Source: Candidatus Woesearchaeota archaeon (GTDB lineage Archaea > Nanobdellota > Nanobdellia > Woesearchaeales > JAHWHD01). Taken from it: a stretch of DNA of 64,000 nt. The stretch spans positions 18,316-82,315 of the forward strand of contig JAHWHG010000002.1 of NCBI GenBank assembly GCA_019323515.1, written 5' to 3'. How positions within the stretch are numbered: position 1 is the first letter of the stretch; each line of letters starts with the position of its first letter. Positions 47,106 through 60,579 of this stretch are shown in pieces. Position numbers and translations under genes: made by a program. The notes under the pieces are model-generated. The model did not search any database, was not told where the DNA came from, and saw nothing but the letters and a program-made list of their open reading frames with translations.

Positions 47106-48110
47106 CTAGAACAGTGCTCTTCCTAACCTGTAGTCCGGGTTAGGGTTGAGGTAATTAACAAGCCTTTTAATTAATTCAAGAGAGTTAACGTATCTGTCCT
47201 CTAAATCTGCGTAACCTTCGCTGTTGCCAAGCTGTACCTTGTCATAGTCAGCATAATGATGAATCTCTTTAAATATATTTTTGCAGTACTCAAAGAAATA
47301 TCTTGGGTTCTCTCTGATGTGTTTTTTTAGTCTGTTATTTGGTTCAAAATAGTATGTGAATCCTCCATGATTCTTTATGTATTGATTCATATCTGCAGTC
47401 TCTTTGCTTAGTGTGTTTGAATGATGTCCAATGTCCCAGGCAAGCCTCTGTACGAGTTTCTCCATTGCATACAATCCGAATGAGTAAAGGTCTGAATATT
47501 TATGAATCATTTCATCTTTATACTCTGGTGGCGCGTATGCACGGTTCCAGAACAGGCCATTGTCTTCCTCTAAAGGACAGGCAATACCAAAATCAATAAG
47601 GTGGTAATCAAGGATGTTTGCTGGTCTGATGTCTTTATGCTGAAGGCCTTGGTAGGTTAATGATAGAACAGCTTCCTCAAGTTTTTGCATGTTATGGAAC
47701 TCTTTTGCTAATCCTATAAGGCCGTAGTTGTTATAATAATAAGGTTTGATGTAAGGCATTAAGATACCTGGTATGTCGCCAAAAGTTACCATGCCTAAGC
47801 AGTTTACTATGTTTGGGTGTGACATGTCGAATGAATTGAAGATCCTAATCTCGTTAAGGTGCCTTTCAAAATGAGTCATCTTAAGTACATGGTCTATCAT
47901 TCCAGTGCTTTTAATGAATTCAAGGTCTATCAGCTCGTTAGGGATATTTACCTTGCAGACAGCCTGGTAATCTGACCATCTTTGTTCTTCTTTTACATTA
48001 ATGTAGTACAATTGGCTAAGACAGTCAAGGTCTTTGCCCCTAAACCCTTGAAAAATCTTTATCTTTCCGCAGTCACTCACTTGTCCTGGTTCAAGAAGAT
48101 ATGCCATCAT
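47106..48110 (-). CDS. Hanks-type (eukaryotic-like) protein kinase paralog K1
   Basis: ORF track 334 aa with AVCKVNIPN (Lys), NEIRIF (Glu), HKDIRPANI, DFG, APPEY and SDLYSFG. The N-terminus MAYLLEPGQVSDCG is shared with K2. The C-terminus is diverged (YLNPNPDYRLGRALF). Confidence 0.8.
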   Translation of the reverse strand: MMAYLLEPGQVSDCGKIKIFQGFRGKDLDCLSQLYYINVKEEQRWSDYQAVCKVNIPNELIDLEFIKSTGMIDHVLKMTHFERHLNEIRIFNSFDMSHPNIVNCLGMVTFGDIPGILMPYIKPYYYNNYGLIGLAKEFHNMQKLEEAVLSLTYQGLQHKDIRPANILDYHLIDFGIACPLEEDNGLFWNRAYAPPEYKDEMIHKYSDLYSFGLYAMEKLVQRLAWDIGHHSNTLSKETADMNQYIKNHGGFTYYFEPNNRLKKHIRENPRYFFEYCKNIFKEIHHYADYDKVQLGNSEGYADLEDRYVNSLELIKRLVNYLNPNPDYRLGRALF

Positions 48111-49087
48111 ACATACTCCATTAGTTCTTCAGTTAAAAGATGTTTAGGAGGGATTCTTTTGTCAGGGTCAGGGTTTAGGTAGTAGCGGCAGATTTGAATT
48201 AGTCCTGAACAATCAACTGCCGAGATATAGGAATCATATGACATTGAGTTGTCTTCAACATGAAAATCATTATCTTTAAAATAATTGATATTTTTCTGGA
48301 GAATCCTAATGAATTCTTCTGAATCCTGCCTGACATTCTTTGAAAATTCGTAAGGTTCCTCACTAAAGTTAAGAACCTTTCTACAAAAATCAGGTTTAAG
48401 TTCTTTAGAATCAAAATACCCATAAGAAATCCCTCTTAGATAAGTCGTTTGAAGAGACATCCCAACTGAATAAGATATTAATAACCCAACTGAGTAAAGG
48501 TCAGAATTTTTATGAGGCTTGCAGTTGAAATATTCAGGGGCACAAAATGAACGATTAAAAAATATTCCATTGTCGCTGTCGACTCTACAGGCAATCCCAA
48601 AATCAATCAGTTTGCCACCAATAACATTGTCAGGCTTAATGTCCTTGTGTGAGATACCATTATGCCTTAGATAATATACAGCACCTTCAATGCCTCTGAA
48701 CGTTTCAGGATAAAGAAACAAGATTCCTCCATACATGTCACGATTACAAAGATTAAGAACTGCCACTGGAAGATCTTTAAATGTTATATCACCTAATAAA
48801 GAAATTATGTTTGGGTGAGAAATTTGTTTAAGGATCGAAACTTCATTATTATGCCTTTTGTTATGTGATTGAAGATTTAACATAACCTGTAAGCCTGTAC
48901 TTATTAATCCTTCTCTATCAATTCTGTTATTTGGAATATTTAATTTTCCTATATTTGCAGTATCTGAGCCGAACTTCTGCAATACAAATAGCTGGCTTAG
49001 ACAATCCAGGTTTTCTCCCCTTATCCCATGAATAACCTTATACCTAGCGCAGTCGCTCACTTGTCCTGGTTCTAGAAGATATGCCAT
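48107..49087 (-). CDS. Hanks-type protein kinase paralog K2
   Basis: ORF track 326 aa with IGKLNIPN, NEVSILKQISHPNI, HKDIKPDNV, DFG, APEY, SDLYSVG and C-terminal YYLNPDPDKRIPPKHLLTEELMEYV. The stop overlaps the K1 start (ATGA). Confidence 0.8.
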   Translation of the reverse strand: MAYLLEPGQVSDCARYKVIHGIRGENLDCLSQLFVLQKFGSDTANIGKLNIPNNRIDREGLISTGLQVMLNLQSHNKRHNNEVSILKQISHPNIISLLGDITFKDLPVAVLNLCNRDMYGGILFLYPETFRGIEGAVYYLRHNGISHKDIKPDNVIGGKLIDFGIACRVDSDNGIFFNRSFCAPEYFNCKPHKNSDLYSVGLLISYSVGMSLQTTYLRGISYGYFDSKELKPDFCRKVLNFSEEPYEFSKNVRQDSEEFIRILQKNINYFKDNDFHVEDNSMSYDSYISAVDCSGLIQICRYYLNPDPDKRIPPKHLLTEELMEYV

Positions 49088-50181
49088 TATAGATACCCCA
49101 TTAGTTCCTCAGTTAAAAGGTCTTTAGGAGGGATTCTTTTTTCAGGGTCACGGTTTAGGTAGTAGCAGAATCTTTCAAGGAATTTTTCATCGAGTGACAG
49201 GTTAAATACTCCCTGAAGGTTACTTGCCTTAAGATTCATAGCATCGTGCAATGTCTTATACTCTGCTGAACCGCTTAGCTCCCAAGCACCTGAGAAATGT
49301 TGCTCAAAAACTGAGAGGCAACCTACAGGACCTCCTGCATCTTGGAAGAACTTTGTAAAGTTTTTGGGGTATTCTCTTATGCTCTTTACCACGTTTATAT
49401 CGTTAAATTGAGGTATGTACTCACTGACAAATTCCTTAATAATTGTGTATAATTTAATCTTCATATCTTGCCTTAGTCTATTAAGATTGTAGTCTATTGA
49501 ATCTTTCTTGTATCCTTCTTTAAAGTCCTCATCTGGATCTTCGTCAAGACAAAAAACAATTTGCCTGAACATTGCCTCAAAGTATACTAAAGCTGCACTG
49601 TATAAATCAGAATTAATATGTGCTCTTTTTTCATAAAACTCAGGAGGGCAATATGCCCTATTAAAGAAAAATCCGTTGTCTGCGTCAATGTGTGAAGCAA
49701 GGCCAAAGTCAATCAGTTTGCCAGCAAGTATGTTTCTTGGGGATATGTCTTTGTGTAATATTCTTTTTGATCTTAAGTAGTAAACAGCGGATTCCAGGCC
49801 TGATAATTCTGAGACACATCCTTTTGAATGCCTATCAAGAACTTTACCTATTTTCATCAGCATTCCGCGCTTTCCGTTGAACTCACAGATGTCATAAATC
49901 TCCTGAATATTTGGATGTCTAAGGCTTTTAAGTATTGAAACCTCATTATCAAACCTTTCCTCGTGCGTCTGCATCGATAATATCTGTGACATCCCAGTAC
50001 TTCTTACATGTTCTTTGTCAATCAAATCGTTTGGGATGTTTACTTTAAGTATTAGAATATGTTTATCATCCTTTGTAACATATAACTGGCTTAAGGAGTC
50101 ACAATTTTCTCCAATTAAACCAAGAGCAGCCATGTACTTTCCGCAGTCGCTTTTCTGGCCTGGATTAAGTAAGAATACCAT
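49087..50181 (-). CDS. Hanks-type protein kinase paralog K3
   Basis: The track ORF starts at TTG 50193. I prefer ATG 50181 (MVFLLNPGQKSDCGKY aligns with the K1/K2 N-termini; atttataaag 50201..50210 lies upstream). It has LILKVNIPN, NEVSILKSLRHPNI, HKDISPRNI, DFG, PPEF, SDLYSAA and YYLNRDPEKRIPPKDLLTEELMGYL. The stop overlaps the K2 start (TAATG). Confidence 0.8.
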   Translation of the reverse strand: MVFLLNPGQKSDCGKYMAALGLIGENCDSLSQLYVTKDDKHILILKVNIPNDLIDKEHVRSTGMSQILSMQTHEERFDNEVSILKSLRHPNIQEIYDICEFNGKRGMLMKIGKVLDRHSKGCVSELSGLESAVYYLRSKRILHKDISPRNILAGKLIDFGLASHIDADNGFFFNRAYCPPEFYEKRAHINSDLYSAALVYFEAMFRQIVFCLDEDPDEDFKEGYKKDSIDYNLNRLRQDMKIKLYTIIKEFVSEYIPQFNDINVVKSIREYPKNFTKFFQDAGGPVGCLSVFEQHFSGAWELSGSAEYKTLHDAMNLKASNLQGVFNLSLDEKFLERFCYYLNRDPEKRIPPKDLLTEELMGYL

Positions 50182-50200
50182 ATAGAAGTCCAATCAGGGT

Positions 50201-50225: not shown

Positions 50226-51158
50226 TTATTTCTTTGACTCTTTTCTTTTCTTTACAAATTCCCTTATAGCAAGGATATCTCCAGCGTGTCTTGCAGCCTG
50301 TATGCATTTGTCATAATCGTTAGGGTACTTTTCATAGATAAGTTTAGCCAGTCTTTTTGCTTCTCCACTTTTCTTTGCTTCAAATGCAATGGTTGATGCT
50401 TGCATAAGCTGGCCAAGCTGTTCTCTTATAGATATAGCTGTCTGGTAATCTTTCATTGTAACTGCGATATCTGCAAGATCCTCAAGAAATGCTTTTGAGG
50501 CTTTATTCTTTCTATCTAAAGCGTCCAAGTAAATAAGGTATGCATCATTTTCCCTTCCAACTGATTTTGCTATCTCAATCTTTCTCTTGACTGTCATGGT
50601 ACGTTCTATGGCTTTGTCTGATAACTCAATTGCCTCTTCAAACATGTTAGCTTCAAATGCTGTCTCTGCTGCAACTGCTATGTAATCAGTCTTGATGAAA
50701 AGTTCAATAGCTTCCTGGAACTTGCCTTGTCTCCTGAGAGACCATGCCTGGTGATACTTTTGATTCCTTAGCTCTTCCTTGCTAGGACCTTTATAGTTCT
50801 CCTGGCTCCAGCTGTTAATTGCGTAAAGTACTTTAGATGTCATAAGGTTTGCAGGTATCTTTGAGCACCTGTCAAGGCTTTGCACGAAAGTAGCAAGGTC
50901 ACCGTCGTAATCGAACTCTCTTTCCCATTTCTTGAAGCTTGCCCCAAGTATAAAGGCAGGCAGCATGTTTTCGATATTGTCCCAGCTAGGATGTCGCCAT
51001 TCATTTACCCTTGTTCCGCTCCATTGGACATCTTCTAAACCTATAATCCCAATATAAGAAATCTCTTCATCATCTATCTTTATTATCTCTTTATTCTTTA
51101 CAAGAAGTTTTCCTTCAAGTGAGTATTCGCTGCCTGATTCAGTCTTGTAGATCTTCAT
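50226..51158 (-). CDS. Helical-repeat (TPR-like) protein with distinct N-terminal domain
   Basis: ORF track 310 aa. The C-terminal two thirds consist of repeated ~34-aa helical pairs (FQEAIELFIKTDYIAVAAETAFEANMFEEAIELSDKAIE...). It lies immediately upstream of the kinase array on the same strand. Confidence 0.55.
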   Translation of the reverse strand: MKIYKTESGSEYSLEGKLLVKNKEIIKIDDEEISYIGIIGLEDVQWSGTRVNEWRHPSWDNIENMLPAFILGASFKKWEREFDYDGDLATFVQSLDRCSKIPANLMTSKVLYAINSWSQENYKGPSKEELRNQKYHQAWSLRRQGKFQEAIELFIKTDYIAVAAETAFEANMFEEAIELSDKAIERTMTVKRKIEIAKSVGRENDAYLIYLDALDRKNKASKAFLEDLADIAVTMKDYQTAISIREQLGQLMQASTIAFEAKKSGEAKRLAKLIYEKYPNDYDKCIQAARHAGDILAIREFVKKRKESKK

Positions 51159-54326: not shown

Positions 54327-54674
54327 ATGAAGTTTCCGCTCACCAAGAAGGATATAATTGCAATGAACCAGGTGTTTGACCAGGGGATTTTGATCAATGA
54401 GGAGAGTCTTGACTTTGCTATAAGCTATGCTAGAATGACAGAGAACTGGGTAAAGGCTCTTGCTTTTTTGGTCAGAGCGATAAACGTTGACCATGTCTTT
54501 GAGGAAGGAAATAAGCGGACAGCTGCATTACTGATAGAGACCTATGTTGAGTTTGAAGGCCATAAGGTGTACAAGGATAAACTTGCTTTATTGATTGCTC
54601 GAATGGCAGCTAAAAGGGTAACAAGCATAAGAAGATTGGAGGAGATGATCAAAGATGTCATCAAGAATAGTTAA
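54327..54674 (+). CDS. doc: Doc (death-on-curing) family toxin
   Basis: ORF track 115 aa. HVFEEGNKRTAALL matches the Doc variant of the Fic motif (HxFx[D/N/E][A/G]NKR). Confidence 0.75.
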   Translation: MKFPLTKKDIIAMNQVFDQGILINEESLDFAISYARMTENWVKALAFLVRAINVDHVFEEGNKRTAALLIETYVEFEGHKVYKDKLALLIARMAAKRVTSIRRLEEMIKDVIKNS

Positions 54675-56602: not shown

Positions 56603-57664
56603 CTAGCCCATGTACTTCAACAGTTCTTCTGTCAATAGCTCTTTAGGAGGGATTCTTTTGTCAGGGTCAGGGTTTAGGTAGTAGCGGCATCTTTCTAAAA
56701 GTTTTCTGGACCATACTCCCTCAGGTGACCATTCAAATGCTCCATAATATCCCATTATCTCTCCCTCAGATACAACTTCTTCCAGCTTTTTATAAAAATG
56801 TGAAAATAAGTCTACATATTCATTATAATGATCTTTTATCTTTCCTGGGTAGTTTTTGTCTTTGGACCAATCAATAAAATCTTCATAGTAGGTAATCGGT
56901 CTCCAATCTATATCTTTGGTCTCTGGAAACAGACCTTTATCCACAAAGTCCTGAAGCTGCTCTAAAAAACCTTTTGCCTTGACACGAATATATGTGCATT
57001 TTGGGGAACTTTTATACCAGTCCCTTATGATCAGCTGCTCTAACAAGGCATTGATTATAACCAGGCCATACGAGTATATGTCAGAATTCTTATGTAGCCT
57101 GCAATCATCAAACTCAGGTGGTCTGAACATCCTGTTAAAATATAAACCGTTGTCATCTTCAAATCTGCAAGCAATACCAAAATCAATTAATTTTGATTTT
57201 GTCATGTTCATTGGTCTTATGTCCTTGTGCGCTATCCCTTTATGTCTTAGATAGTAAATTGCAGGCTCGATCTTGTCTAAGTGCTGGATAGGATAGTTTA
57301 TCCAAAAATTTTTATGGTAATCAGTTTCCAGAGCAAACACTATTGCAGGAAGTCCATCAAAATAAGTTGTGTCGTGTAAAGATATTATGTTAGGATGGTG
57401 AAGCTGTTTAAGGATGGCGACTTCGTTTTCAAACCTCTCTATATGTGTCAAATGATTTAGCATATGGGACATGCCTGTACTCTGGATATGTTCCTTATCA
57501 ATAAGGTCATTAGGGATGTTTAACTTTGCAGCGAGTGACTGTGGAGAAGCCAGCCAATATACCTGGCTCAAGCAGTCCCTTATACATCCAGATAAAGGTA
57601 AAAACACTGTGTACTTGCCGTCATCTGAAACCTGGTCACGACTTAGCAATAATCCATCTCCCAT
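56603..57664 (-). CDS. Hanks-type protein kinase paralog K4
   Basis: ORF track 353 aa with AAKLNIPN, NEVAILKQLHHPNI, HKDIRPMNM, DFG, PPEF, SDIYSYG and YYLNPDPDKRIPPKELLTEELLKYMG. Confidence 0.8.
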   Translation of the reverse strand: MGDGLLLSRDQVSDDGKYTVFLPLSGCIRDCLSQVYWLASPQSLAAKLNIPNDLIDKEHIQSTGMSHMLNHLTHIERFENEVAILKQLHHPNIISLHDTTYFDGLPAIVFALETDYHKNFWINYPIQHLDKIEPAIYYLRHKGIAHKDIRPMNMTKSKLIDFGIACRFEDDNGLYFNRMFRPPEFDDCRLHKNSDIYSYGLVIINALLEQLIIRDWYKSSPKCTYIRVKAKGFLEQLQDFVDKGLFPETKDIDWRPITYYEDFIDWSKDKNYPGKIKDHYNEYVDLFSHFYKKLEEVVSEGEIMGYYGAFEWSPEGVWSRKLLERCRYYLNPDPDKRIPPKELLTEELLKYMG

Positions 57665-57753
57665 AGGGTTAGCTAGTGATAGAAGGATTTAAAGGTTATT
57701 GTGAGGGGTTAAGTGAATAAATATTTATAAATCCTTTACTGGTTCTTTGGATT

Positions 57754-58605
57754 ATGATAACATTATATGACTTTCTTAAGTCTGAGAGTCTTAGGGAGTT
57801 GGAGCAGAGGTACCTTTCTCAAGGTTATGAGTTCTCTATCGAGGAGGCTATTGAGGACTGGCAGAAGCTTAAGCAGGATAGATGTGAAAAGAAGGTCCTG
57901 TGCAGGACTGAGAATCTTAAAGTTGATGGTTGTGATTATCATGTACATGGGATATGTCATTCTAAATATATAAGTGAGAAGCACAGGGATATGTTTAAGA
58001 GTAAGGAAACTTTATGGTTCTATGAAGAGAACCTTGGAAGGCATATTGATGTGCATGGTATAGAGGTGTATGACCATGCATTGTTTGACAGGGATGATGT
58101 GTGGCAGATGTCAATGGAGGATGATTTCAGTGCACTTGAGCTGTTCTTTAAATCGTTAAGGAAGAAGAAGGCAGACAAAGCTGAGAGGTCTTTAGGTATG
58201 CCAGCTGAAGTTGCGTATTCCCTGCCTTTCTACCTTGTGATGGACTTAGCAGGAGGGAAGGTTGCTAATCTGACAGGAGATAGGTCGAGGTTAGCTGCAA
58301 GGTCTGCTTTCCAGGCTGCTTTTATGAAAAAGTTTGAGTTCAAGGATAAGTCAATAGTTGTAGGTGATGCGCATCGTGGGCCTGTTAAGTATTTCCTTAA
58401 GAACGGTGTGAAGGATGGGTATATTAATGCATTGGCTGATTATTATTATGAACTGTTCATGATGGACCAGAAGAAGTATTACATGTCTAAACCTTCAAGA
58501 GAGTTAGGTTATAGGATGATGAACCTTTATGCTGTGCTGTGGAAGAACCGATATGGGTTATTGTTTGATGCTGTGCTGTTGAATGTTGCTTTTGGGTTGT
58601 TGTGA
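57754..58605 (+). CDS. TraB/Tiki-superfamily-like protein
   Basis: ORF track 283 aa. YHVHGICHS...WFYEENL...RSRLAARSAFQAAFM...IVVGDAHRGPVKYFL fits the GxxH...E...R...GxxH layout of TraB/PrgY/Tiki proteins (tentative). It is divergent from K4. Confidence 0.45.
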   Translation: MITLYDFLKSESLRELEQRYLSQGYEFSIEEAIEDWQKLKQDRCEKKVLCRTENLKVDGCDYHVHGICHSKYISEKHRDMFKSKETLWFYEENLGRHIDVHGIEVYDHALFDRDDVWQMSMEDDFSALELFFKSLRKKKADKAERSLGMPAEVAYSLPFYLVMDLAGGKVANLTGDRSRLAARSAFQAAFMKKFEFKDKSIVVGDAHRGPVKYFLKNGVKDGYINALADYYYELFMMDQKKYYMSKPSRELGYRMMNLYAVLWKNRYGLLFDAVLLNVAFGLL

Positions 58606-58615
58606 ACGAGATTGG

Positions 58616-59032
58616 TCAGGAAAGAAGTTCCTTAATCTGGCTGATAAACTTAAGCATGCTATCAATTAAATCAGATGCTTCTTCCTTTGAGACATCTTTG
58701 CCATAATAATTTATCTGGTTTCTTAATCTCCTGAACCTGTCAAAGGTTTCTGCAAGGTTTGGCTTATCAAGTATCTCTTTAAGAAAAGCGACATAGCATT
58801 GGTGGTTATAGATCTTGTATCCTTCACTGATCGCCAAAGCTTCTAAAAGTTCCCTTAAAGATTCATATAGAAGACTTAACTTTGAAGATGCTGTAGTATC
58901 ATTGAGCTCAAGCATCGACTGTGTTTCCAGTTTCTTTGCAGAAGAATCTTTCAGAGATTTAATCAGGCTTTTATCAATAGTGATACTTTTTACCATATCA
59001 TTCATATTACAAGCTTTCCAGTCCATCACCAT
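58616..59032 (-). CDS. HEPN domain protein (toxin partner of MNT)
   Basis: ORF track 138 aa, four-helix-like. FDRFRRLRNQINYYG matches the R-x-x-R-N-x-x-x-Y HEPN (PF05168-type) signature. It overlaps the upstream MNT gene by 7 nt. Confidence 0.7.
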   Translation of the reverse strand: MVMDWKACNMNDMVKSITIDKSLIKSLKDSSAKKLETQSMLELNDTTASSKLSLLYESLRELLEALAISEGYKIYNHQCYVAFLKEILDKPNLAETFDRFRRLRNQINYYGKDVSKEEASDLIDSMLKFISQIKELLS

Positions 59033-59517
59033 GCACCTGAAAGTATGTGGCCGTTAAGAATGTTGTTCAACAACTGTTTTGGTACAGATTTCTTATCCTT
59101 GAATATGAACAGTTGTATCTCCCTTTTTTTATGCTTTAATAGTGGTTTTTTTGTAGAAGAAGTGAATACAGCAATATCAATATCTGAACCAGGCTTGACC
59201 TCAGCTTTTGAAAGTGAACCGAAAAGGATTATCAAAGGATCTATCAGCTCTTTTTCCATCTGTTTTACTAGAGGTTCCAGCTCCAGGCTCCAGTAAACTC
59301 TTGAAAGGTCCCTAAAAAGTTTGCTCTCCTTGTCTGCAGAATAAAAGATATAGTTCCTGTCAAGCTCCTTTGTTAGTAGCCCTTGATCCTTGTAATAAGT
59401 CAAAAGCTTTGAAGCAGTAGGGGCTGTTATGCCAATCAACCTGGCGTATTCCCTTACATTTATCCTTCTATAACAGTCTTCAAAAAAGGGTTTTAAATCG
59501 TTTAATATATTTAACAT
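59026..59517 (-). CDS. wHTH + minimal nucleotidyltransferase (MNT) protein
   Basis: ORF track 163 aa with an N-terminal HTH (YARLIGITAPTASKLLTYYKDQGLL) followed by GSLSKAEVKPGSDIDIAVF (GS...DxD). Confidence 0.75.
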   Translation of the reverse strand: MLNILNDLKPFFEDCYRRINVREYARLIGITAPTASKLLTYYKDQGLLTKELDRNYIFYSADKESKLFRDLSRVYWSLELEPLVKQMEKELIDPLIILFGSLSKAEVKPGSDIDIAVFTSSTKKPLLKHKKREIQLFIFKDKKSVPKQLLNNILNGHILSGAW

Positions 59518-59691: not shown

Positions 59692-60579
59692 ATGTTCATA
59701 GAAATAAGAGAAGTAGGTAAAAGCAAGAAGTATTATCTTATACATACCTATAGGTCAAAGGGTAAAGTAAAACGTCTATCTAAATATCTTGGTTCTAATC
59801 TAAGTAAAATTAAACTGCAAAAATTACGGAAAAAGGCAGAGCAGCAGATATCAGAGGAGATAAAAGAGAAGGATATTCTTGGATTTGAACTGTCAAAAGA
59901 TGAGATCGAAAAATACAAAAGATATGAAAGGGATATAGAGATCAAACATCTGCAAAACTGGCAGAAGTTTACTGAGAATTTTACCTATAATACAAACGCG
60001 ATCGAGGGCTCAACAGTTGCGTTATCTGAGGTAAGGGAACTGCTTAGAGGAGAGGACAAGCCTCATGATAATGATGAAATTGAAACATTAAATGTTGCAG
60101 AGGCGATTGAGTTCATCAAAAATTCTAAACTGAAGGTTACAGTTGCGTTTATCAAGAAGTTACATAAGATCTGCTTTAACAGGACAAAACGGTTTGCAGG
60201 CAAGTTAAGGGATGTTAATGTGGTGATCCGTGATTCAAAAGGGATGGTTGTTCATGAAGGTGCTCCAGTTGACCAGCTAAAACTACTGCTTGAAGAACTT
60301 TGCACTTGGTATGAAAAACATAAAAGGAAATATCCTGCATTGCTGCTTGCTGCAGTGATGCATAACCAGTTTGAAAAGATCCATCCATTTCAGGATGGTA
60401 ATGGAAGGGTTGGCAGGTTACTGCTTAATTATGTACTAATAAGGCATGATTATCCGCCAATCAATATCAGGCTTAAGGATAGGGCAAGATATTATCGTTG
60501 CTTGCATGAGTATGATAATAAGAACGATATCAAATCAACCCTGAAATTTCTGATAAACCAGTACAAAAAACAATATTAG
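59692..60579 (+). CDS. fic: Fic family protein
   Basis: ORF track 295 aa. HPFQDGNGRVGRLL is the canonical Fic motif HxFx(D/E)GNGRxxR. Confidence 0.9.
   Translation: MFIEIREVGKSKKYYLIHTYRSKGKVKRLSKYLGSNLSKIKLQKLRKKAEQQISEEIKEKDILGFELSKDEIEKYKRYERDIEIKHLQNWQKFTENFTYNTNAIEGSTVALSEVRELLRGEDKPHDNDEIETLNVAEAIEFIKNSKLKVTVAFIKKLHKICFNRTKRFAGKLRDVNVVIRDSKGMVVHEGAPVDQLKLLLEELCTWYEKHKRKYPALLLAAVMHNQFEKIHPFQDGNGRVGRLLLNYVLIRHDYPPINIRLKDRARYYRCLHEYDNKNDIKSTLKFLINQYKKQY

Follow-up and report, generated by a model that had tools for sequence, protein, structure and literature searches.

The prokaryotic members of the TraB/Tiki superfamily are barely understood: PrgY and TraB take part in pheromone shutdown, ChaN in heme uptake, and Ere in macrolide hydrolysis. 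Here we examine two genes, P1 and P2, that had been placed in this superfamily by their motif layouts and that each lie beside protein kinase genes in a 64,000-nucleotide (nt) stretch of DNA from a Candidatus Woesearchaeota archaeon (contig JAHWHG010000002.1, positions 18,316 to 82,315 of the forward strand). We refer to this whole stretch as the window. P2 is paired divergently with the kinase gene K4, and P1 is the terminal gene of a unit that holds three paralogous kinase genes, K1 to K3. The original prediction read these two pairings as evidence for a functional link between kinase and partner. We find a four-copy kinase expansion restricted to this genome and, around P2, an undescribed protein family conserved mainly in DPANN archaea of the Woesearchaeota/Nanoarchaeia type. 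On balance, we favor a reading in which P2 is a remote TraB-like protein and its adjacency to a kinase is coincidental.

The structures that define the superfamily are those of ChaN (PDB 2G5G), Bcr135 (3B55), HopBA1 (5T09), PMT (2EBF), and RRSP, which have a parallel beta-sheet core with flanking helices; the residue layout consists of two His and two Glu residues plus a basic residue, and the chemistry is of the His/Glu kind (PMC6254334).

The P2 family compared with TraB/GumN proteins

P2 (57754..58605, plus strand) has an ATG start and encodes 283 amino acids (aa). A word-indexed search with this protein returned only itself, and there is no Pfam model for its family; an exhaustive HMMER search recovered 33 remote homologues (E values of 9e-13 to 3e-4, lengths of ~290 to 390 aa), mostly from DPANN archaea. 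These relatives come from Nanoarchaeia and Woesearchaeota metagenome-assembled genomes (MAGs) and from groundwater metagenomes. The family is not strictly archaeal: L022, L034, and L047 are members with bacterial surroundings, which comprise a Planctomycetaceae MAG as well as contigs encoding an acyl-CoA dehydrogenase, a sigma-70 factor, and a GT9 glycosyltransferase.

Conservation was judged over 32 members in an alignment of the family, which we call A2. G66, E91, D107, P158, and H207 are invariant, and H69, R183, S184, and G204 are nearly so. From the N terminus, a helical region is followed by YxIYGIxH (G66/H69), NWLxEQNL (E91), ExPDH (D107), LPxYV (P158), RSAYQAEF (R183/S184), and ILVGAxHxxEIKYFLxxGVKD (G204/H207). 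The strings on which the superfamily assignment of P2 had been based are all present in its translation, namely YHVHGICHS at residues 62 to 70, EENL at 91 to 94, AAFM at 188 to 191, and VVGDAHRG at 202 to 209. Many members also have a C-terminal hydrophobic tail, which in P2 spans residues 267 to 283. Because P2 has this hydrophobic helix and no signal peptide, we infer that it is tail-anchored at the membrane with its catalytic domain in the cytoplasm.

Tandem duplicates of P2-family genes occur in two genomes (L017:6602-9026 and L019:7057-8921). The second copy in L017 is split into two open reading frames (ORFs) and may be a pseudogene.

An AlphaFold2 model of P2 made with A2 as the alignment has a mean predicted local distance difference test (pLDDT) value of 86.8 and a predicted template modeling score (pTM) of 0.83. 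In this model, G66-x-x-H69 follows a strand at 60 to 67, G204-x-x-H207 follows a strand at 198 to 204, and E91 ends a strand at 87 to 91, between the two GxxH strands. Both GxxH motifs of P2 thus come directly after a strand, and both A2 and the model place a Glu after the first GxxH and an Arg before the second.

This arrangement resembles that of the TraB/PrgY/GumN proteins (PF01963; E. coli YbaP, PrgY of Enterococcus pCF10, and TraB of pAD1) in several respects. P2 has a beta-hairpin followed by a GxxH, a Glu ~22 residues after the first GxxH that ends the next strand, and an Arg 21 residues before the second GxxH; the spacing from this Arg to the second Gly (R183 to G204 in P2) is identical in P2, YbaP, and PrgY. 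In addition, PrgY-type members have C-terminal membrane segments, comparable to the C-terminal hydrophobic tail of P2. The differences are also clear. P2 has a family-specific N-terminal helical domain (residues 1 to 42), the invariant Asp107 in ExPDH, and LPxYV, all of which are absent from YbaP and PrgY; its insert between Glu and Arg is much shorter; its match at the level of hidden Markov models (HMMs) is not significant; and it is not located beside pheromone or conjugation genes.

We compared A2 by hhalign with two reference profiles, one made from seven YbaP-type TraB/GumN sequences of E. coli K-12 and plasmids and the other from five Enterococcus PrgY/TraB sequences, independent of the YbaP-type set. 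Against the YbaP-type profile, the segment running from the hairpin and GxxH to the Glu scored 22.8 (P = 0.034) and the segment from the Arg to the second GxxH scored 22.5 (P = 0.037), with the two alignments co-linear and in register. Block shuffling of the profile, done 100 times, gave at most 21.7 and never attained the co-linear sum, and the reversed profile scored 15.2. The two catalytic blocks were again in register against the PrgY-type profile, with scores of 20.3 and 19.4. For calibration, two bona fide PF01963 subfamilies score 25.8 against each other in the N-terminal block and 57.3 in the C-terminal block. Taken together, these sub-threshold matches suggest that P2 is probably a very remote TraB/GumN-like protein. 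By analogy with the His/Glu chemistry of the superfamily (PMC6254334), it would then be a peptidase or esterase.

A number of results weigh against this assignment. Neither P2 nor the A2 consensus matches any Pfam model, searches of NCBIfam and of PDB sequences with P2 and the A2 profile found nothing relevant, and the hhalign probabilities of the P2 family against the TraB profiles are about 1 to 2%. When the P2 model was compared with the PDB by Foldseek, the best E value was 0.95 and no ChaN, Bcr135, RRSP, PMT, or HopBA1 structure was among the matches listed, despite a confident model and the existence of solved superfamily structures. Very remote folds that carry large inserts are poorly detected by Foldseek, so the negative result makes membership of P2 less likely but does not refute it. 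We know of no solved structure of a PF01963 member, a circumstance that would soften this result. P2 is, moreover, the most divergent member of its own family: the near-invariant Tyr186 and Glu189 are replaced by Phe and Ala, and an internal proline-rich hydrophobic segment (approximately residues 125 to 150) seen in many homologues is missing. These changes mean that P2 may be degenerate or neofunctionalized.

Two faint matches lean toward TraB. Among the 32 A2 sequences, Pfam gave TraB_PrgY_gumN at an E value of 0.085 in one and DUF5682 at 0.077 or weaker in three. A Foldseek search of BFVD with the P2 model placed a "TraB family protein [Catovirus]" at rank 2, which is not significant (E = 0.38; TM score, 0.32). 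No archaeal (Haloprofundus) TraB sequence was among the matches listed when plasmids were searched for one. When P2 was compared with the TraB profile as a single sequence, it took sixth place among 36 window proteins. Of the 58 window ORFs that are 150 aa or longer, 4 have two or more GxxH motifs, which makes such motif pairs uncommon without being rare, and counting them gives weak evidence by itself.

It is conceivable, and in our estimate unlikely, that P2, P1, or both fall outside the Tiki/TraB superfamily, with the GxxH/Glu/Arg layout a product of convergence or chance and the fold of P2 not present in the PDB. The failed Foldseek, Pfam, NCBIfam, and PDB sequence searches, the low hhalign probabilities, the middling rank of P2 as a single sequence, and the shortness of the GxxH motif are what such an explanation has in its favor. 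It fits poorly with two best alignments that are co-linear and in register against two independent profiles and exceed all 100 shuffles, or with an Arg-to-GxxH spacing that is the same in P2, YbaP, and PrgY, and it would also have to account for the behavior of P1, to which we now turn. The placement of P2 in the superfamily is plausible and supported in part, by sub-threshold profile-profile matches, whereas the standard annotation and structure searches do not bear it out.

P1 compared with ChaN

P1 (45941..47065, minus strand; 374 aa) carries the motifs FGEHH (GEHH), IEGF, IRNW, and VGSGH and has a probable N-terminal signal peptide, MRKSLIVPALYFTLTSAFA, followed by KS. No homologues were found for it in a word-indexed search of 5.8 billion proteins, and a PDB sequence search found nothing relevant. 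Its single-sequence AlphaFold model is unusable (pLDDT 34).

The closest described proteins are ChaN/Cofac_haem_bdg (PF04187; Campylobacter ChaN, PDB 2G5G) and the erythromycin-esterase-type enzymes. P1 shares with these a GE-x-H motif (GEHH), a Glu after a hydrophobic stretch (IEGF), an RN, and a GSGH, and its layout is that of the two His and two Glu residues plus a basic residue described for the superfamily (PMC6254334). Like ChaN, it would be exported. ChaN/Cofac_haem_bdg is also the sole match of P1 among 24,736 Pfam models, over the RN…GSGH segment, with an E value of 0.22 when the full protein is scored and of 0.035 when only the domain is. The points of difference are that the score (14.5 bits) is about half the gathering threshold (27.7 bits), a shortfall that counts against membership, and that the aligned part comprises the C-terminal 36 residues only. 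P1 further has an unrelated N-terminal region of ~130 aa, no lipobox Cys, and no heme or iron uptake genes nearby.

Against the TraB/GumN profile, hhalign placed the same RN…GSGH segment in register (score, 30.4; P = 0.0016; probability, 16%). None of 100 shuffles reached this score (maximum, 23.1), which lies ~5 standard deviations above them, and P1 ranked first of 36 similar-sized window proteins, the next best scoring 23.2. This result and the unique ChaN match among the Pfam models argue against a chance origin of the layout. P1 is plausibly a ChaN-like exported protein, judging from its sequence; its membership in the superfamily is plausible from its motif set and the TraB-profile P value but sub-threshold, as the Pfam match lies below the cutoff.

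No direct similarity between P1 and P2 was detected by BLASTP, by hhalign, or with the A2 HMM against the window ORFs. As the two are not detectably related, the pairing of kinase and partner was not duplicated as a unit. If both are superfamily members, P1 and P2 belong to different families.

The K1-K4 kinases and the layout of the locus

All four kinases match Pfam Pkinase at 50 to 69 bits, against a gathering cutoff of 31.7 (K4, 57 bits and E = 2.6e-15; K1 to K3, E values of 4e-13 to 6e-19). K4 (56603..57664, minus strand; 353 aa, ATG start) had been described as a fourth paralogue 6.4 kilobases (kb) from the kinase array, and this proved correct, including the exact coordinates: its identity to the three array kinases is 40, 38, and 40% by BLASTP (E values of 2e-73 to 7e-47) and 42, 45, and 37% in a multiple alignment.

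Compared with the Hanks-type kinases (PF00069), K1 to K4 keep the beta3 Lys, the alphaC Glu, the HxD…N loop, DFG, APE, the alphaF Asp, and the alphaH-I Arg; the residues invariant among the four are Lys47, Glu81, His146-Lys-Asp148, Asn153, Asp161-Phe-Gly163, Pro183-Glu184, Asp195, and Arg337. They differ in lacking the canonical GxGxxG loop, in having HKD rather than HRD in the catalytic loop, and in their long, variable C-lobe inserts. In place of GxGxxG there is a conserved, family-specific N-terminal motif, LLEPGQVSDCGKY…D.LSQLY…K.NIPN. Among solved structures, K4 comes closest to CAMK-type kinases of a generic kind, DAPK for example (E ~5e-16). On these sequence features, K4 is apparently an active, lineage-specific, eukaryotic-type Ser/Thr protein kinase (ePK). 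We considered whether K4 might be a diverged Bud32 in a Bud32 position and rejected this, as the two resemble each other only in generic features of the catalytic loop (hhalign probability of 78%, across 35 columns), and the activation segment of K4 is complete, with an APE motif.

Besides K4 itself, a word-indexed search of 5.8 billion proteins with K4 recovered its paralogue K2 and, at E values of ~1e-4, three generic kinases, of which one is encoded on a contig from a eukaryote and another within a PP2C operon of a bacterium. No close relatives of the K family were found there beyond this contig.

The array unit lies on the minus strand and is tightly packed in the order TPR-like protein, K3, K2, K1, P1. 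Its first gene (50226..51158) encodes a 310-aa helical-repeat protein whose TPR matches are sub-threshold throughout (Pfam E values of 4e-4 to 4e-2). A gap of 32 base pairs (bp) separates it from K3 (49087..50193), base 49087 is common to the K3 stop and the start of K2 (48107..49087), the frames of K2 and K1 (47106..48110) overlap by 4 bp, and P1 follows K1 after 40 bp. The overlapping and abutting frames of K1 to K3 suggest one transcription unit. K4 begins 6.4 kb beyond the end of K3 at 50193.

K4 and P2 are divergent over a spacer of 89 bp (57665..57753), exactly as had been predicted. The spacer contains two TATA-like boxes, tttataaa at 57724 to 57731, ~27 nt before the P2 ATG at 57754, and tttaaa at 57688 to 57693, ~27 nt before the minus-strand start of K4 at 57664. 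From these positions, the spacer would hold two back-to-back archaeal promoters that give leaderless mRNAs. Public sequencing runs (DRR851344, DRR851375-8, and SRR11241199) contain the K4-P2 pair at 100% identity on six short Logan contigs, some of them in more than one sample. These copies show that the assembly is real and add no evolutionary depth. Four of the six stop at one base inside K4, at window position 56660, where the resemblance of K4 to its paralogues probably interrupted the assembly.

The other genes of the window are archaeal in character, including a family-B DNA polymerase, an S-layer protein, a PIN-KH ATPase, and SerRS, and the GC content is ~38%. Rfam and tRNA scans detected no rRNA or tRNA genes in the window.

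Kinase-partner pairing and its meaning

Since the K family is confined to this genome and P1 likewise has no relatives elsewhere, co-occurrence and co-phylogeny can be computed from the P2 side only. We read the neighborhoods of about 20 other distinct P2-family loci, with the genome scan run through a 10-sequence subset of A2 and a metagenome scan that added few loci. A K-type kinase was present at none of them. The functional link between kinase and partner that had been proposed is thus not borne out by the homologues of P2, which stand without such kinases wherever the comparison can be made. Nor do the two kinase loci of the window amount to independent instances, as was claimed for them: they belong to a single genome, lie 6.4 kb apart, and hold paralogues.

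The commonest immediate neighbor of P2 homologues is a divergent gene for a 353-aa HIT-domain protein. In Woesearchaeota, this forms part of a synteny block made up of GatD, an APH-type phosphotransferase, a NUDIX protein, a DHH-like protein, the HIT protein, the P2 homologue, and TFB. Further neighbors include PNP/PRTase, pterin dehydratase, and PIN/RHH toxin-antitoxin pairs; the bacterial loci contribute a sigma-70 factor and an acyl-CoA dehydrogenase. The TFIIB/TFB gene downstream of the P2 homologue encodes proteins with ~91% identity among three loci (L017:9029-9955, L019:8960-9940, and L020:9076-9999), where the identity of GatD is 47 to 66%. This similarity reflects either unusually strong conservation or recent exchange.

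Some of these neighborhoods do contain kinase-fold genes of other kinds. Including K4 in the window, a kinase-fold gene lies directly beside a P2-family gene at 4 of about 21 loci, drawn from three kinase families. In L011-13 (L011:1820-3432), a Bud32/RIO-type kinase (~205 aa, HGDLTTSN…IDFG) is downstream of the P2 homologue and co-directional with it, with a 68-bp gap; in L018 (L018:7289-8951), a Bud32/RIO-type kinase is divergent from the P2 homologue across ~95 bp, a geometry like that of K4 and P2; and in L020 (L020:6861-9059), an APH-family phosphotransferase lies directly upstream, with a 42-bp gap. An APH-type gene also occurs three to four genes from the P2 homologue in L017, L019, L035, and L043; the APH proteins of these loci and of L020 have 335 to 359 aa and the motif HGDFHSGN…FD. 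Two further neighbors were considered as hidden kinases and set aside: the 372-aa protein in L014 has no Pfam or hhalign kinase match, and the 265-aa protein in L007 has no Pfam kinase match.

Two of these observations tell against coincidence. The rate of kinase-fold adjacency is above the roughly 1 to 2% that we would expect by our own rough estimate, and both putative Tiki-like genes of the window flank kinase loci. When synteny is collapsed, however, there are ~3 independent kinase-fold adjacencies in ~9 neighborhoods, which gives a nominal probability of ~0.02, a rough, post hoc, and fragile figure. Gins51 lies nearby in both Bud32 loci (L011 and L018), which may represent one ancestral linkage. 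We regard kinase-fold adjacency to the P2 family as a fragile lead and not as a finding.

A real functional module of kinase and Tiki/TraB-like protein would give these adjacencies a meaning. A membrane-anchored hydrolase might be regulated by phosphorylation, or might process the kinase or a peptide substrate shared with it, and P1 might act likewise with K1 to K3. We consider this improbable. The shared 89-bp divergent promoter region of K4 and P2, the position of P1 40 bp after K1 on the same strand, the flanking of both kinase loci by motif-bearing genes, and the presence in other lineages of kinase-fold genes from different families (Bud32 in L011-13 and L018, APH in L020) are all consistent with such a module. 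Against it, no other P2 homologue has a K-type kinase beside it, and the kinase-fold neighbors belong to three families with no relation to one another, two of them made up of housekeeping or small-molecule enzymes. With Gins51 common to the Bud32 cases and one synteny block common to the APH cases, they reduce to the ~3 events counted post hoc. Furthermore, a probable signal peptide is present in P1 and absent from the kinases, which would put them in different compartments, and P1 and P2 are not homologous at the family level. We found no literature on a module of kinase and TraB/Tiki protein. A broader version appears to us less likely still. In it, a new branch of TraB/Tiki-type hydrolases, found mainly in DPANN archaea and represented by the P2 family, would work with kinase-fold proteins in general, having come to lie beside Bud32, APH-type, and K-type kinases in separate lineages, and would have been elaborated here into a multi-kinase system with a secreted Tiki-like P1.

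The stretch around K4 and P2 is rich in accessory and toxin-type genes. A pair encoding a HEPN protein and a minimal nucleotidyltransferase (58616..59517) lies just downstream of P2, followed by a gene for a Fic protein (59692..60579) that PADLOC assigns to its SoFic model (E = 3.9e-33). A short ORF at 54327..54674 is Doc-like and carries the motif HVFEEGNKRTA. A similar HEPN/nucleotidyltransferase pair occurs near the P2 homologue of a Hainich groundwater contig (L007:7208-8327). K1 to K4 match the PADLOC models PD-T4-6, mad6, and MkoA (E values of 1e-9 to 4e-18), no better than they match the generic Pfam Pkinase, which indicates kinase-domain similarity only. PADLOC gave no matches for P1, P2, or the TPR-like protein. 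That the kinases sit in an accessory or defense island and resemble single-gene Ser/Thr kinase antiviral systems (PD-T4-6/Stk2-type), with P2 a bystander core gene, would suit these neighbors and a kinase family limited to this genome, as expected of fast-evolving conflict genes, yet given PADLOC scores that do not surpass Pkinase and the lack of matches for the partner genes we think it very unlikely, and a defense role of the kinases is possible but unsupported.

The reading that we favor, as slightly the better part of the probability, combines the kinase expansion, a remote TraB-like P2, and coincidental adjacency. A DPANN-type archaeon would have undergone a recent lineage-specific expansion of ePKs, which produced K1 to K3 in tandem and K4 at a distance. 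P2 would be the local, divergent copy of a small, mainly archaeal family with a few bacterial members; its conserved residues and predicted alpha/beta fold would best be read as those of a very remote TraB/GumN His/Glu hydrolase, held at the membrane by its C-terminal helix. P1 would be an unrelated secreted orphan that carries a ChaN-like form of the motif set. The adjacencies would then most likely be a by-product of kinase copies landing in a variable stretch rich in accessory genes, and K4-P2 and the array with P1 would probably not represent a conserved two-component module. At present, the pairing is without comparative support and is unfit for use in functional annotation.

The novelty here is modest. 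It consists of a protein family found mainly in DPANN archaea, unannotated and probably a remote branch of TraB/Tiki, and of a genome-restricted expansion of ePKs to four copies. If the remote assignment is true, the TraB/Tiki hydrolases have an archaeal branch, so far unannotated, that P2 defines. DPANN archaea have tiny genomes, and this makes a conserved, putatively membrane-anchored hydrolase noteworthy among them. The four-copy kinase family, for its part, is a clear case of lineage-specific expansion of signaling or conflict genes in a reduced archaeon.

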